Source: a virus | Lineage: Duplodnaviria > Heunggongvirae > Uroviricota > Caudoviricetes | IMG/VR virus record: IMGVR_UViG_2778261570_000020 | Strand: one strand, 5' to 3' | DNA: 6,008 nucleotides | Shown here: positions 2 through 5,939 of the stretch, one piece after another | How the letters are laid out: every line of letters begins with the position of its first letter | Numbering within the stretch: the first letter of the stretch is position 1 | The notes under the pieces: generated by a model | The model's database searches: none | Told to the model about the DNA's origin: nothing | Seen by the model: only the letters and a program-made list of their open reading frames with translations | Made by a program: the position numbers and the translations under genes

Positions 2-127
2 TGGCCTCTGTACGAGAAAATCGCGCAGGCATTTAAGCAGGCTGCCGCAGAGCTGAATACCCCCATCGAATGGGGCGGTGAGTGGCGGTCGTTAAAGGAC
101 GGGCCTCACTTTCAGCTGAAACGATAA
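2..127 (+). CDS. 3' end of a CDS truncated by the window start; possible peptidase M15-type phage endolysin (L-alanyl-D-glutamate peptidase-like)
   Basis: Open frame from position 2 to TAA at 125-127, translating ...WPLYEKIAQAFKQAAAELNTPIEWGGEWRSLKDGPHFQLKR. The C-terminal W-x-D-G-x-H-[FV]-[QE]-L pattern resembles the C-terminus of M15-family phage endolysins (e.g. the T5 endolysin ends ...YDGGHVELV). Position upstream of small membrane ORFs and a cos/terminase block fits a lysis gene. Only 41 residues are visible. Confidence 0.4.
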   Translation, partial: WPLYEKIAQAFKQAAAELNTPIEWGGEWRSLKDGPHFQLKR

Positions 128-1723: not shown

Positions 1724-2036
1724 CAGGCATTACAGCAGCCCTTCAGTGTGAGGGGCTGCGATAATGCAGGTGTTAGAGTGTGTGCAAATGATAATTGCTC
1801 CCATTTTCACGGGTCCTCCCGGTGGGGTACCCTTGCCACGGGGCGGGAGCGGCGCGGAAAAAGGCTAGTTTTTGCATTTTCATTCATCATCATCATCTTT
1901 TCAATGCATTGAATTTAAACGAATTTTATTTTTAGTATGTTAATTTTGCGTGTTTTTTGGTCAACATATAACGCACTTTATAACGCTTTTTGAAAAGGTG
2001 TTCGCAAGATGCATGTTTAAAACGTCAGGAGGGGAT
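1724..2036. other. Putative cos / packaging-initiation region upstream of the small terminase gene
   Basis: A 313-bp non-coding interval immediately 5' of a Nu1-like terS. It contains a G-rich tract CGGGGCGGGAGCGGCGCGG (1839-1857) that resembles but is not identical to the lambda cohesive end GGGCGGCGACCT, then an AT-rich stretch with CAT repeats (1881-1896) and a perfect 14-bp palindrome TTCAATGCATTGAA (1900-1913). The roughly 190-bp spacing from the G-rich tract to the terS ATG matches the lambda cosN-to-Nu1 layout. Confidence 0.35.
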
Positions 2037-2528
2037 ATGGATCGTGAGTTGAAAAATCTGATGCTGAACATTAACCAACTGGCGGCAATAGCAGGTATAT
2101 GTCGTCAGACTGCGGCGGCAAGACTGCAAAACATCCAGCCCGCCGGAGGACATGACAAGTTAAAGCTCTACCGGGTGGCAGATATTGTGTCGGCATTTCT
2201 GGCATTACCACCGCCGGTTGCAGAAGGCGAAATGGACGCGCATGAGCGCAAAGCCTGGTATCAGTCTGAACGTGAGCGTCTTAAGTTCGAACAGGAAACG
2301 GCACAACTCATTCCGGCCAGTGATGTCAGACGGGAGTTTGCCATCTGGGCAAAAGCGGTCGTGCAGGTGCTGGAGACATTACCGGATATTCTTGAACGTG
2401 ACTGCGGTCTGCAGCCTGCCGCTGTGAGCCGTGTTCAGTCCATTATTGATGATCTGCGCGATCAGATAGCCCTGCGGGTGACTGAAGCAGGTGCGGATGA
2501 TGAGGAGGAATTACAGCAGGAGGAGTAA
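2037..2528 (+). CDS. Terminase small subunit, Nu1-like (164 aa)
   Basis: ATG at 2037 with a strong AGGAGGGG RBS. The N-terminus MDRELKNLMLNINQLAAIAGICRQTAAARL...KLYRVADIVSAF parallels the lambda Nu1 helix-turn-helix region (KKQLADIFGASIRTIQNW...VLYDSAAVIKWY), with an acidic C-terminus. Stop TAA 2526-2528 overlaps the ATG of the large-subunit gene (TAATG). The longer track ORF from 1950 would run through the cos-like region and is not preferred. Confidence 0.75.
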   Translation: MDRELKNLMLNINQLAAIAGICRQTAAARLQNIQPAGGHDKLKLYRVADIVSAFLALPPPVAEGEMDAHERKAWYQSERERLKFEQETAQLIPASDVRREFAIWAKAVVQVLETLPDILERDCGLQPAAVSRVQSIIDDLRDQIALRVTEAGADDEEELQQEE

Positions 2529-3523
2529 TGCTGAATCAGGAAACCGCAAAGGCAGCACGAACCGATTCAGGTTATATCCTTCGCGCACCGAGACGAATGC
2601 GGGTTGCTGATGCCGTTGCTCAGTATATGCGGGTGCCTATGGGGGCAGGGAACTCAGTCCCGTGGGATCCGCTGGTGGCACCGTATGTTATTGAGCCTAT
2701 GAACTGCCTGGCCTCGCGTGAATACGACGCAGTGATATTTGTTGGCCCGGCACGAACCGGCAAGACTATCGGCCTGATTGACGGCTGGGTGATTTACAAC
2801 GTGATTTGCGATCCTGCTGATATGCTGATCATTCAGATGACGGAGGAAAAAGCCCGCGAACACTCCAAAAAACGACTCGCCAGAACGTTTCGCGTCAGCC
2901 CGGAAGTGGTCAGTCGCCTGAGTCCGAACAAAAATGACAACAACGTTTATGACAGAACATTCCTTGCCGGCAATTACCTGAAAATCGGCTGGCCGTCAGT
3001 CAATATCATGTCCTCATCAGATTATAAATGTGTGGCGCTGACGGATTATGACCGTTTTCCGGAAGATATTGATGGTGAGGGGGATGCCTTCTCTCTTGCT
3101 TCAAAACGAACCACCACATTTATGTCCAGCGGTATGACGCTGGTGGAAAGTTCACCCGGCAGGGATGTGAAAGATGTGAAATGGCGACGGACTTCACCGC
3201 ATGAGGCTCCGCCAACCACGGGGATCCTGTCACTCTATAACCGTGGCGATCGTCGTCGCTGGTACTGGCCCTGCCCACACTGTGGTGAGTATTTTCAGCC
3301 CTGTGGCGATGTGGTTGCTGGTTTTCGTGATATTGCCGATCCCGTGCTGGCAAGTGAGGCAGCTTATATTCAGTGCCCTTCCTGTTCCGGGCGAATTATG
3401 CCTGACCAGAAACGCGAGCTGAACGGACGTGGGGTCTGGTTGCGGGATGGTGAATCCATCAATGCAGACGGCAGTCGTTATGGTGAGCCCCGGCGCTCAC
3501 GTATTGCGTCATTCTGGATGTAG
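2528..3523 (+). CDS. Terminase large subunit, GpA-like, N-terminal half only (331 aa; C-terminally truncated, likely remnant/pseudogene)
   Basis: Walker A-type motif VGPARTGKT and cysteine motifs WPCPHCGEYFQPCGD and CPSCSG that parallel lambda gpA (ACPHCGEEQYLKFGD, then GIWTRDG versus GVWLRDG here). Lambda gpA is about 640 aa; this frame stops at ...RIASFWM where gpA continues (...VTFHIWTAYSPF...), and no continuation is visible in any frame downstream. Confidence 0.8.
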   Translation: MLNQETAKAARTDSGYILRAPRRMRVADAVAQYMRVPMGAGNSVPWDPLVAPYVIEPMNCLASREYDAVIFVGPARTGKTIGLIDGWVIYNVICDPADMLIIQMTEEKAREHSKKRLARTFRVSPEVVSRLSPNKNDNNVYDRTFLAGNYLKIGWPSVNIMSSSDYKCVALTDYDRFPEDIDGEGDAFSLASKRTTTFMSSGMTLVESSPGRDVKDVKWRRTSPHEAPPTTGILSLYNRGDRRRWYWPCPHCGEYFQPCGDVVAGFRDIADPVLASEAAYIQCPSCSGRIMPDQKRELNGRGVWLRDGESINADGSRYGEPRRSRIASFWM

Positions 3524-3609
3524 GGTACATTTCTTACCTGTTTTTATGTTCTGGTGTCGTTTTGTAGTCTTTTCAATGAGTTGTGATTTTTTGTGTTTCC
3601 TCTCTTTAC

Positions 3610-3684: not shown

Positions 3685-4923
3685 ATGCCGGTAAAGCCAT
3701 TAACCGTGACTGAAGTTAAGGGGATGAAACCACGTGAAAAGGACTATGCCGTTTATGATGGGTTCGGTTTATTGCTGAATGTGAGTAAAGCTGGTGGGAA
3801 AGTGTGGCGTTTCCGTTATAGCCATCCGATAACGAAGAAACGGCAGACATACACGATAGGGCGTTTTCCTGAATTCTCACTCGCGGAAGCACGGGAAATA
3901 CGTGATGAACTTCGGCGAATGATTGCACGTGGAGTTGATCCAGTGACAGAGAAGAAAAATCGTAAAATTGAGATGTCACTAAAAAATCTACAAACATTTG
4001 AAGCTGTTGCTAATGCATGGATCGCTTTTAAAAAGGGATCGGAATTGCGGAAACCTACGCTGTATAATATCGAATATGAAGTATACAAATATCTTGTTCC
4101 TTTCTTTGGTAAGTACAGCATAGAGAAAATTACAGCGCCAGTAGCTATTAATGCTCTGGATGCCGTATCCGATAAGAATGCGTTGCAAAAAAAATTAATA
4201 TCAAGATTAAATGAAATTATGAATTACGCTGTAAATTGTGGAGCATTGAAAACGAATCCATTACTTAAGATAAAAACTGCATTCACAGGAAAGAAAAATA
4301 AATCATTAGCTGCACTACCTGTTGAAAGATTGCCTGAATTTCTGAGTTGGTGGGATAGTGTGCCTCATAAGTATCAAATAGCTCACAATGCACTTTTATT
4401 CCAGATATTGACAATGGTCAGGCCAGGTGAGGCGATTAAAGCAGAGTGGTCCGAGATTGATTTTGATTCTGGCTTGTGGATTATCCCTGCGCATAAAATG
4501 AAATGCCATCGTGAACATGTTGTGCCTCTCTCATCACAGGCTATTAGAATCCTAAGAACAATGCAGAAAATAAAAAGAGGGCGTTATATATTTTTTTCCT
4601 CCAGAACAAAAGATGCTCCTATGGGAAAGAATACTATCAATACCCCAATTGCTGCCAGCAAGTTCAAAGGGATTGTAACGTTACACGGTTTTCGTTCGAT
4701 GTGGAGTACGCTTTTAAATGAGGAGGGTTTTAACCCTGATGTTATTGAGGCTGCATTAGCACATAAAAGTGGTGATAAAATAAGAGATATTTATAATAGA
4801 ACTACTTATTTAGAACAACGCAAAATTATGATGCAATGGGTAGGAGATTTTTTTGATGAGGCGAGAAAAGGGGTAATTAATAGATCCGGTGGTAAGAAAG
4901 GTTTGAGAATAGTAAATGGTTGA
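3685..4923 (+). CDS. int: Tyrosine site-specific integrase, P4-type (412 aa)
   Basis: N-terminal arm-binding-type domain (MPVKPLTVTEVKGMKPREKDYAVYDGFGLLLNVSKAGGKVWRFRYSHP..., characteristic of P4-like integrases). Catalytic motifs are present: RPGE box (MVRPGEAIKAEW), HGFRSMWST (H-x-x-R) and the C-terminal tyrosine region AHKSGDKIRDIYNRTTY. RBS GAGGG upstream of ATG 3685. Gene is AT-rich relative to the terminase block. Confidence 0.9.
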   Translation: MPVKPLTVTEVKGMKPREKDYAVYDGFGLLLNVSKAGGKVWRFRYSHPITKKRQTYTIGRFPEFSLAEAREIRDELRRMIARGVDPVTEKKNRKIEMSLKNLQTFEAVANAWIAFKKGSELRKPTLYNIEYEVYKYLVPFFGKYSIEKITAPVAINALDAVSDKNALQKKLISRLNEIMNYAVNCGALKTNPLLKIKTAFTGKKNKSLAALPVERLPEFLSWWDSVPHKYQIAHNALLFQILTMVRPGEAIKAEWSEIDFDSGLWIIPAHKMKCHREHVVPLSSQAIRILRTMQKIKRGRYIFFSSRTKDAPMGKNTINTPIAASKFKGIVTLHGFRSMWSTLLNEEGFNPDVIEAALAHKSGDKIRDIYNRTTYLEQRKIMMQWVGDFFDEARKGVINRSGGKKGLRIVNG

Positions 4924-4935
4924 GGAGTTCAGCAA

Positions 4936-5139
4936 ATGAATACCAATGAAGATATTTTATTTACTAAAGACGTAATGAAAATTTTGCGCTATGGGGCAAT
5001 GAGCGCATTCATCAATTTCTGGAAAGATGAAAATAATGGTTTTCCTCAACCGTTCAGAATTGGGCGGCGGCATACCTGGCACCGTAGAGATGTAGAGGCA
5101 TGGTTAGATAAACAACGAGAACAGGCCAATCCCCACTAA
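4936..5139 (+). CDS. alpA: AlpA-family (excisionase-like) DNA-binding regulator (67 aa)
   Basis: Small protein immediately 3' of the integrase (13-bp gap, RBS GAGGAG). The pattern ...KDVMKILRYGAMSAFINFWKDENNGFPQPFRIGRRHTWHRRDVEAWLDKQ matches the AlpA / prophage CP4-57 regulatory protein architecture (HTH, then a conserved FP-x-P-hydrophobic-x-G motif, then W-x3-[DE]-x2-[EA]-W). Confidence 0.7.
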   Translation: MNTNEDILFTKDVMKILRYGAMSAFINFWKDENNGFPQPFRIGRRHTWHRRDVEAWLDKQREQANPH

Positions 5140-5197: not shown

Positions 5198-5779
5198 ATG
5201 AATAAAAATATTGCCGTGACGGGCAAGGGGTACGCTCGTTCAGTAAAAAAATTCTGCGATATTCGTGATCTTGTCGTTCTGCGCTTTGATGGCGTGGATG
5301 TTCGTGTGGTGTATCTGAACGGCGATCCGTGGTTTGTTGCAAAGGATGTTTGTGAAGCTCTGGAAATAAGCAACTCACGCGATGCTCTAAAAGCTCTGGA
5401 TGTGGATGAGAAGAATACCGTCGCTTTAAGCTACGGTATTCGCGGAAATCCAAATCATAGCGTCGTTTCTGAATCTGGTTTTTACAAGCTGATCGCCAGA
5501 AGTCGCAAAGCTGTTACTCCTGGCACGTTCGCCCATCGTTTCAGTAATTGGGTATTCAGAAATGTGATACCGGGTATCAGAAAAACGGGGGCTTATGGTA
5601 TCCCGTGGGGCGCATTGCAGGATTTTTCCCGCCGCAAAGAGCAATACCGGATAAGTGCCAGCGAGAAGGGGAGGGCGCTACAGGCATGTAAGCGCAAAAA
5701 GCGTGAACTGGAGGAAGAAGAAAAAAGGCTGATACGTGAATATCAGCCTGAGTTTTACTTTGGTGAGCGTATTCAGTAA
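5198..5779 (+). CDS. Bro-N domain protein (phage antirepressor-like; 193 aa)
   Basis: RBS TGAGGT 8 nt upstream of ATG 5198. Conserved Bro-N signature blocks: VVLRFDGVDVRVVYLNGDPWFVAKDVCEAL...SRDALKALDVDEK, then SESGFYKLIARSRKA...FAHRFSNWVFRNVIPGIRKTGAYG. C-terminal 50 residues are highly charged (KRKKRELEEEEKRLIRE). Confidence 0.8.
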   Translation: MNKNIAVTGKGYARSVKKFCDIRDLVVLRFDGVDVRVVYLNGDPWFVAKDVCEALEISNSRDALKALDVDEKNTVALSYGIRGNPNHSVVSESGFYKLIARSRKAVTPGTFAHRFSNWVFRNVIPGIRKTGAYGIPWGALQDFSRRKEQYRISASEKGRALQACKRKKRELEEEEKRLIREYQPEFYFGERIQ

Positions 5780-5824: not shown

Positions 5825-5939
5825 TTACCCACCAGCAAGGCAAAATCTTCTGCTAAAAAATGACATATGGCCAGTCGTCCGGAAAGCATGAAATTTTACA
5901 AAAATGGAAAATGAAGATTTTTATTGTGCTGGTGGGTAA
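5825..5939. repeat. Perfect 13-bp inverted repeat (TTACCCACCAGCA at 5825-5837 / TGCTGGTGGGTAA at 5927-5939) enclosing an 89-bp spacer
   Basis: Exact reverse-complement arms read directly from the sequence; the spacer contains the second copy of the direct repeat. Confidence 0.7.
5840..5897. repeat. Copy 2 of the ~58-bp imperfect direct repeat (perfect 20-bp core at 5876-5895)
   Basis: See copy 1 at 723-780; the core CGTCCGGAAAGCATGAAATT is identical in both. Confidence 0.7.

Follow-up and report, generated by a model that had tools for sequence, protein, structure and literature searches.

A predicted lambda-type cos region with a recognition half shared with PICI-type satellites in a lambdoid Escherichia coli prophage

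Introduction

The cos site decides which terminase packages a DNA, and thus which phages, cosmids and satellites move together. The question raised by the present locus is whether a G-rich interval upstream of a small terminase gene is such a site, and to whose packaging system its recognition elements belong. The stretch analysed here, called the window, is 6,008 nucleotides of the record IMGVR_UViG_2778261570_000020 and derives from a lambdoid E. coli prophage, of which it represents the late region. It opens in the 3' end of an M15-type endolysin gene, which is followed by small lysis and moron ORFs, and the order then continues with the cos interval, terS (2037-2528), a part of terL, an integrase gene, an alpA-like gene and a Bro-N gene. 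The GC content is 64-70% across 1800-1874 and 20-34% across 1875-2024. Our data indicate that 1811-2036 is very probably a cos, and that the lambdoid E. coli prophage to which it belongs has head genes of the mEp460/cdtI type. They also show that its recognition half is identical to that of a satellite.

Results

An earlier note on this DNA had described a lambda-like but non-identical G-rich core, and this was borne out, as CGGGGCGGGAGCGGCGCGG lies at 1839-1857. It forms part of a 22-bp cosN (1836-1857, plus strand) that reads CCACG/GGGCGGGAGCGG/CGCGG and aligns with TTACG/GGGCGGCGACCT/CGCGG of lambda. The nicks are predicted by homology after 1840 on the top strand and after 1852 on the bottom strand, and the CG 5' of each nick is conserved between the window and lambda (ACG/GGGCGG...GG/CGCGG, 1838-1857). 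The predicted 12-nt 5' cohesive end is therefore GGGCGGGAGCGG (1841-1852, plus strand). Its first six bases are the same as in lambda, and five of the six bases in its right half differ (positions 7, 8, 9, 11 and 12), which agrees with the statement that the core is not the canonical lambda sequence. It is known that in lambda-like phages positions 7-12 of the cohesive end vary freely, whereas cosQ, positions 1-6 and the nick-flanking CG are kept (PMC4669245). The differences of the window lie in these variable positions, and the site fits this rule. At position 12 the 88 related loci have either T or G, even within one cosB type.

The packaging-termination signal cosQ was found as the heptamer GGGTCCT at 1811-1817 (plus strand), identical to lambda 48473-48479. 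Its distance to the predicted nick is 23 bp, the same as in lambda. All 13 relatives compared contain cosQ, 22-24 bp before the nick (22 bp in the group of cdtI, Tritos and mEp460), and homology among the relatives starts at about 1809-1810, immediately 5' of it. The window contains the composite GGGTCCT-N21-CGGGGCGG a single time, against 0.01 occurrences expected by chance. An alignment to the lambda cos ends, which had been proposed as a check, thus agreed in cosQ, in spacing, in the left half of cosN and in the CGCGG that follows the end. The distance of about 190 bp between the core and terS also held, since the terS ATG at 2037 is 196 bp past the predicted nick and the corresponding distance in lambda is 190 bp; in both, a gpA-family TerL is encoded.

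A sensitive search of phage genomes gave 38 records similar to the cos interval. Two of them, NC_009514 (cdtI) and OV696610 (Tritos), open at the base homologous to 1841, with GGGCGGGAGCGT, and close with ...GGGTCCTxCCGGTGGGG..CCTGCCACG. The group of cdtI, Tritos and mEp460 has the same cosQ, the same end save position 12 (T versus G), the same 22-bp spacer after cosN, a DUF1441 TerS and a gpA-type TerL. The site is a member of the known lambda-like group, and its variant of the cohesive end is already present at the ends of deposited genomes. In the literature, no published map of the ends was found for cdtI, Tritos or any DUF1441-type relative; the Tritos paper contains no description of the DNA ends, and according to the Ayreon note the start of that genome was an arbitrary choice and its cos had not been mapped. 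Hence the starts of the cdtI and Tritos records may follow the lambda analogy, and the nick positions stay predictions. A text search of the literature for the cohesive-end sequence returned only unrelated papers on G-quadruplexes and vectors, and Rfam gave no match over cos. The linear assembly of mEp460_4F5 (LR595868, L003/L004) starts 5 nt before the predicted nick and is without 3 nt of the end (GGGCGGGAG-CGCGG); this break looks like an assembly artefact at the physical ends and, like the two record starts, counts as indirect evidence for the predicted ends. The reading of the interval as a lambda-type cos is supported by cosQ and cosN's left half at lambda spacing, by differences that fall in variable positions, by the gpA-type TerL and by the two record starts.

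A hairpin had been described at 1735-1759 in the same region. The inverted repeat is real and longer than was stated, with arms at 1727-1745 and 1749-1767 just past the stop of the ORF 1421-1723, and as RNA it has a folding energy of -32.4 kcal/mol (z = -4.2). However, it belongs to a different mosaic module. Its 44-nt core hardly changes between phiP27, Fels-1, phi458 and an Actinobacillus phage, that is, between phages of E. coli, Salmonella and Actinobacillus. At least 120 viral contigs contain the hairpin; its flanks fall into 43 different contexts, and its loop sequences vary. The copy in phiP27 is upstream of a cos annotated as 10 nt and of another type, that of HK97. Two of the ten prophages that share the window's cos exactly lack the hairpin, and in these homology breaks at 1809. 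For these reasons it was rejected as a part of cos and is taken as a separate widespread element that is not tied to a single type of cos. The possibility of an intrinsic terminator was also rejected: the stem is strong, but the tail GATAATGCAGG has no T run and a terminator scan did not report it. Rfam gave no match over the hairpin. A canonical intrinsic terminator (8-bp GC stem and T run) is present elsewhere, at 1386-1405, after the ORF 1149-1364, and a sub-threshold Rfam match to GcvB at 1277-1412 probably reflects only this terminator.

The AT-rich cosB was assigned to 1853-2036. It begins with an I2-like spacer, CGCGGAAAAAGGCTAGTTTTTGCATTTTCAT (1853-1883, plus strand), between cosN and the first repeat, and DUF1441-type phages whose cosB differs otherwise hardly vary in the first 22 bp of this spacer. 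The CAT repeats of the AT-rich segment are present at 1884-1896 as three overlapping copies of TCATCAT on the plus strand (+44..+56) and form an R3-like site, a candidate for TerS binding. An IHF-like site, WATCAANNNNTTR, which would be the analogue of I1, follows at 1899-1914 with one mismatch per strand (given without strand), and overlaps the perfect 14-bp palindrome TTCAATGCATTGAA at 1900-1913, which is present as described. A putative R2-like site, TTAACAT, is inverted (1937-1943, minus strand, +97), and a putative R1-like site, TCAACAT, lies at 1961-1967 (plus strand, +121). A tandem 12-nt repeat, TATAACGCACTT and TATAACGCTTTT, occupies 1967-1990 just past the R1-like site. The segment of the window-type cosB in which it falls exceeds its mEp460-type counterpart by about 10 bp.

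The order and orientation of these putative elements (site, IHF, inverted site, site) parallel R3-I1-R2-R1 of lambda. In lambda, R3 occupies about +48..+65 (PMC9026076). The I1 site of lambda, on the minus strand, is at +79..91, as compared to +62..74 on the minus strand for the IHF-like site of the window, and lambda R1 is at about +155, as compared to +121 for the nearer R1-like site. The two cosB regions share no sequence; the lambda repeats are CGTTTCC-like and those of the window are TCAWCAT-like. The comparison covered six diverged cosB alleles, all linked to distinct TerS N-termini, namely the window type, its satellite form, the mEp460 type, PhiR47_1, VT1-Sakai and mEp213. The 7-bp motif T[CT]RNCAY was found in all six on the plus strand at +121..123 and on the minus strand at +97..99, and in five of the six on the plus strand at +42..+57, often as overlapping copies. 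The motif is short and degenerate, with about one chance match expected per cosB, and its positional conservation could come partly from common descent.

A match to the IHF consensus with at most one mismatch was found on the minus strand at +62..76 in eight of nine relatives, one satellite allele being without a match. In the window this minus-strand match (1902-1914, +62..74, one mismatch) is formed by the right-hand part of the palindrome. IHF-consensus matches with up to one mismatch were not enriched in the window (7 found versus 7.9 expected), which rules out the site as a purely statistical signal; it is positional conservation alone that supports it. A perfect 14-mer palindrome arises in 34% of Markov-simulated 6-kb windows and in 3.5% of simulated 184-nt cosB stretches. 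By itself it is thus a weak signal, and at window scale it is not beyond chance. Only its right half, ATTGAA, is conserved and the left arm varies within the same allele family, which rules out a conserved symmetric operator. The suggestion that the CAT repeats and the palindrome are terminase or IHF elements therefore stands as far as position is concerned, the one being in the place of R3 and the other in the place of IHF in the relatives, but does not extend to the palindromic symmetry.

It was also considered that the palindrome stretch could serve mainly in transcriptional control of terS, as an operator or promoter, and not as cosB. It does combine a perfect palindrome with AT-rich DNA upstream of a gene, and two weak promoter-like matches were found, both on the minus strand. 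However, these are at chance level (2 found versus 1.4 expected), the left arm of the palindrome varies as noted, and the putative layout matches cosB element for element. Lambdoid late genes are moreover transcribed by read-through from the late promoter. Control of terS as the main role is thus extremely unlikely, and the stretch is treated as cosB.

The small terminase gene terS (2037-2528, plus strand) encodes 163 amino acids and belongs to the family DUF1441 (PF07278, 6e-39). Its ATG is preceded by AGGAGG at 2027-2032, and the start MDRELKNL is common to all homologues. The spacing in front of the gene had been compared with that of Nu1 in lambda. BLASTP of TerS against lambda Nu1 showed no similarity, and Pfam assigns it to DUF1441 and not to the Nu1 family. 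Against PHROG, TerS matched phrog_141, annotated as terminase small subunit, with 2e-72 and phrog_57, the Nu1 family, with 1e-8. Lambda Nu1 gave the reverse pattern (phrog_57 with 1e-76, phrog_141 with 6e-8), and these reciprocal cross-hits each extend over nearly the full protein length. A profile of ten DUF1441 proteins was colinear with Nu1 in hhalign (E = 5e-4, probability 30%). Judged from these profile comparisons, TerS would be a remote homologue of Nu1, outside the Nu1 Pfam family.

Searches of PDB by sequence, with the single sequence and with a profile, gave no relevant match for TerS. The AlphaFold2 model (pLDDT 80.8) predicts that the N-terminus consists of a helix, two more helices, a wing of two strands and a further helix, after which long helices follow. 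Foldseek hits of this model were below significance, the best relevant one being 6hn7_B (probability 0.87, E = 0.17). 6HN7 is an entry from a study of PICI hijacking of helper packaging, and the weak matches also include MerR-type winged HTH proteins. As modelled, the N-terminal part of about 45 amino acids is a winged-HTH-like specificity domain and the remainder is a body of the mEp460 type. In the literature no biochemical study of a DUF1441 small terminase was found, and a text search for DUF1441 returned unrelated phage papers. The large terminase gene terL follows (2528-3523, plus strand). Its N-terminal part, with the gpA ATPase domain (PF05876 GpA_ATPase, 1.7e-72), aligns to residues 1-333 of the intact 700-aa TerL, and intact relatives carry GpA_nuclease as well.

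Comparison with satellites showed 100% identity between the tract 1834-2122 (plus strand), which comprises cosN, cosB and TerS codons 1-29, and the cos-terS unit in a helper-embedded PICI (L105). There are no differences in these 289 bp and dense differences from about 2160. Against a phage of the mEp460 type the differences are dense across 1875-2180, and there are only 3 across 2181-2559 (379 bp); the TerS body and terL are about 99% alike in the two, and cosB and the TerS N-terminus are a different allele. In a sliding comparison, 1871-2166 was nearer to the copy of the EJN001 satellite, and from about 2170 the window was essentially equal to the mEp460-type phage. The satellite-like island of EJN001 has a closely similar cosB and TerS N-terminus joined to another TerS body. 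The identity over 289 bp followed by a switch to phage-type sequence indicates that the cos interval is a recombinant patch, and as the remainder of terS is of the mEp460 type, it is the packaging specificity that forms the exchanged cassette. This exchange is well supported by the identical tract and its sharp breakpoints, and the patch was most likely acquired by recombination or gene conversion.

It was observed in 88 loci that each TerS N-terminal allele, of about the first 50 residues, is paired with its own cosB allele and that the C-terminal body is shared. This co-variation suggests that cosB and TerS residues 1 to about 45 behave as one specificity unit. The allele of the window is found in 3 of the 88 loci. 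In 5426 complete E. coli genomes the cassette was present at 95% identity or more in 4 and at 80-90% in 68, and the copies of the latter class that were inspected are satellite copies (for example EJN001). No complete E. coli genome matched 80% or more of the window. The exact TerS of the window occurs in 230 collection blocks, and in absolute numbers the chimeric phage is thus not rare. E. coli TUM1881 and PSS-15 are two strains that combine this exact cos with an intact terL. At all ten of such places that were inspected, 1810-2036 is 100% identical and is accompanied by an intact 700-aa TerL and full sets of head and tail genes; given this company, the cos is likely to be functional.

Since the cosB/TerS N-terminal allele is found mostly in satellites, the cos-terS unit could also be a captured late-zone module of a PICI, belonging functionally to the satellite and serving its packaging. 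The genome counts above are in favour of such a module, several strains among the 80-90% matches carry int islands, and the allele is present at 91% in an ordinary tRNA-Pro PICI besides being identical in L105. However, the unit has phage lysis genes on one side and phage terL on the other, the very placement seen in the intact prophages, and the TerS body from about codon 48 and terL are of the phage type, with the 3 differences in 379 bp from mEp460-type DNA mentioned above. Moreover, satellite copies follow a satellite capsid gene and the copy in the window does not. We consider a satellite-owned module very unlikely, and the unit is regarded as the cos-terS of the prophage with an exchanged cassette.

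A satellite is nevertheless present close by. In the window terL ends at 3523, after residue 331 or so of 700, and an integrase gene comes next (3685-4923, plus strand, integrase domains), followed by an AlpA-like gene (4936-5139, plus strand; weak HTH_17 match, phrog_66 excisionase/regulator) and a Bro-N gene (5198-5779, plus strand, Bro-N domain). All three are co-oriented with the interrupted terL. The same integrase comes after residue 333 of terL in EJN001, where terL resumes about 10.6 kb further on, at residue 326. The EJN001 junctions share CTGGATG, and joining them rebuilds an ORF of 2103 nt and 700 aa; the window contains attL alone, with the identity block CTGGATG at 3514-3520. Among 34 IMG/VR loci, defined by an integrase at least 93% identical and an upstream flank present, 29 have the integrase directly after a terL cut at about residue 333-356, and the host prophages of the integrase-in-terL loci have three TerS types. 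The island after 3520 is thus a helper-embedded satellite of the PICI type.

The interruption of terL raised the possibility that the cos is an inert relic of a defective prophage and is never used, as terL stops at 3523 (about residue 331 of 700) with the integrase behind it. Excision of the embedded PICI would, however, rebuild the 2103-nt, 700-aa ORF seen in the relative EJN001, and such excision has been shown by experiment for this class of satellites (PMC10111431). In addition, 10 prophages that have an intact terL carry this cos with 100% identity, and no decay was seen in cosQ, cosN or terS. A relic is therefore improbable. With terL interrupted, this copy of the prophage, carrying a cos that is likely functional, can package only upon satellite excision.

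Some further features of the satellites were observed. Many of those examined (L009, which is EJN001, L099, L100, L105, L107, L125 and L133) carry two co-oriented cos copies about 2.5 kb apart, on either side of a capsid-protease fusion gene. In EJN001 the copy at 22406-22446 has a cdtI-type cosB and no terS, and the copy at 24942-24982 has a window-type cosB followed by the satellite's own terS. Such an arrangement could widen the helper range of a satellite. In the attL arm of the window, between the att core and int, there is an IHF-consensus match with one mismatch (TTTCAATGAGTTG, 3571-3583). A 56-nt direct repeat with 75% identity, ending in GTCCGGAAAGCATGAAATT, is present at 723-778, after the prophage lysis genes, and at 5840-5895, after the satellite Bro-N gene. 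Each copy overlaps the start of a small ORF that contains SGKHEIL, and Rfam gave no match for the repeat.

Discussion

The present study places the interval in front of terS within the lambda-type cos sites, as the earlier note had supposed. To the observed homology and positions of the elements, the gene families and the co-variation of cosB allele with TerS N-terminus, a mechanism can be added in which nick positions, TerS binding, IHF binding and function are all drawn from the analogy with lambda. It is proposed that TerS dimers would bind, through the N-terminal winged HTH, to the TCAWCAT-type repeats of cosB (R3 at 1884-1896, the inverted R2 at 1937-1943 and R1 at 1961-1967), and that IHF would bend the DNA at 1899-1914. 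The bound complex could then position the gpA-type TerL on cosN, where TerL would nick after 1840 on the top strand and after 1852 on the bottom strand and generate the 12-nt 5' end GGGCGGGAGCGG. At the end of packaging, cosQ (1811-1817) would signal the nicking.

In the cassettes of lambda, 21 and N15 studied by the Feiss laboratory, specificity resides in cosB and the TerS winged HTH, cosQ and cosN are interchangeable, and natural mosaics swap the unit. The present locus differs in that the swapped unit, whose function here is putative, occurs in satellites as well. It had been pointed out earlier that a divergent cos would matter for satellites, and this was apt, as it is the specificity part that is held in common with those of the PICI type. 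PICIs are known to have cosQ and cosN nearly identical to those of their helper together with their own cosB (PMC9026076), and the satellites described here carry one or two such copies. In the window, by contrast, the phage itself carries the satellite-type cosB and HTH. EcCICFT073 uses Rpp for packaging redirection, whereas the satellites here encode a full DUF1441 TerS instead.

The island also resembles the helper-embedded PICIs described by Tommasini, Mageeney and Williams in 2023 (PMC10111431). The likeness lies in the content of int, AlpA-like and Bro-N genes co-oriented with a late gene; in the relatives, genes for primase and SSB and captured late genes come next, and the interrupted gene is made whole by excision. 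The target differs, being codon 333 or so of a gpA-family terL in the window, whereas the published terminase sites belong to Terminase_1 genes, and 'GpA' is absent from the accessible text of the supplement. A site in a gpA-type terL may thus be an additional, unreported one.

How the cassette came to be shared can be judged only in part. Transfer from satellite to phage is the more parsimonious direction, though it is not proven. Through the embedding, the cos-terS units of phage and satellite become direct repeats at a distance of about 11 kb, and conversion would be favoured by this. That a PICI-type satellite and a helper-type prophage exchanged the specificity cassette, and that this exchange was adaptive, is a tentative reading which we hold to be possible and not probable, and its adaptive part is speculation. 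If it is true, the presence of a satellite's cosB and HTH in the phage would mean that phage DNA is also recognised by the satellite TerS. The phage could in this manner escape the redirection of packaging by satellites, or it could become a general helper.

A large group of lambdoid prophages of E. coli and Salmonella, which includes Stx- and Cdt-related ones, combines the cutting and termination signals of lambda with an unrelated recognition half, which would be read by a DUF1441 small terminase. What is less ordinary at the present locus is that the recognition half is that of a satellite, in a prophage whose terL hosts such a satellite. As this half is identical in the phage and in a terL-embedded satellite, packaging competition between the two is directly testable by simple swaps.
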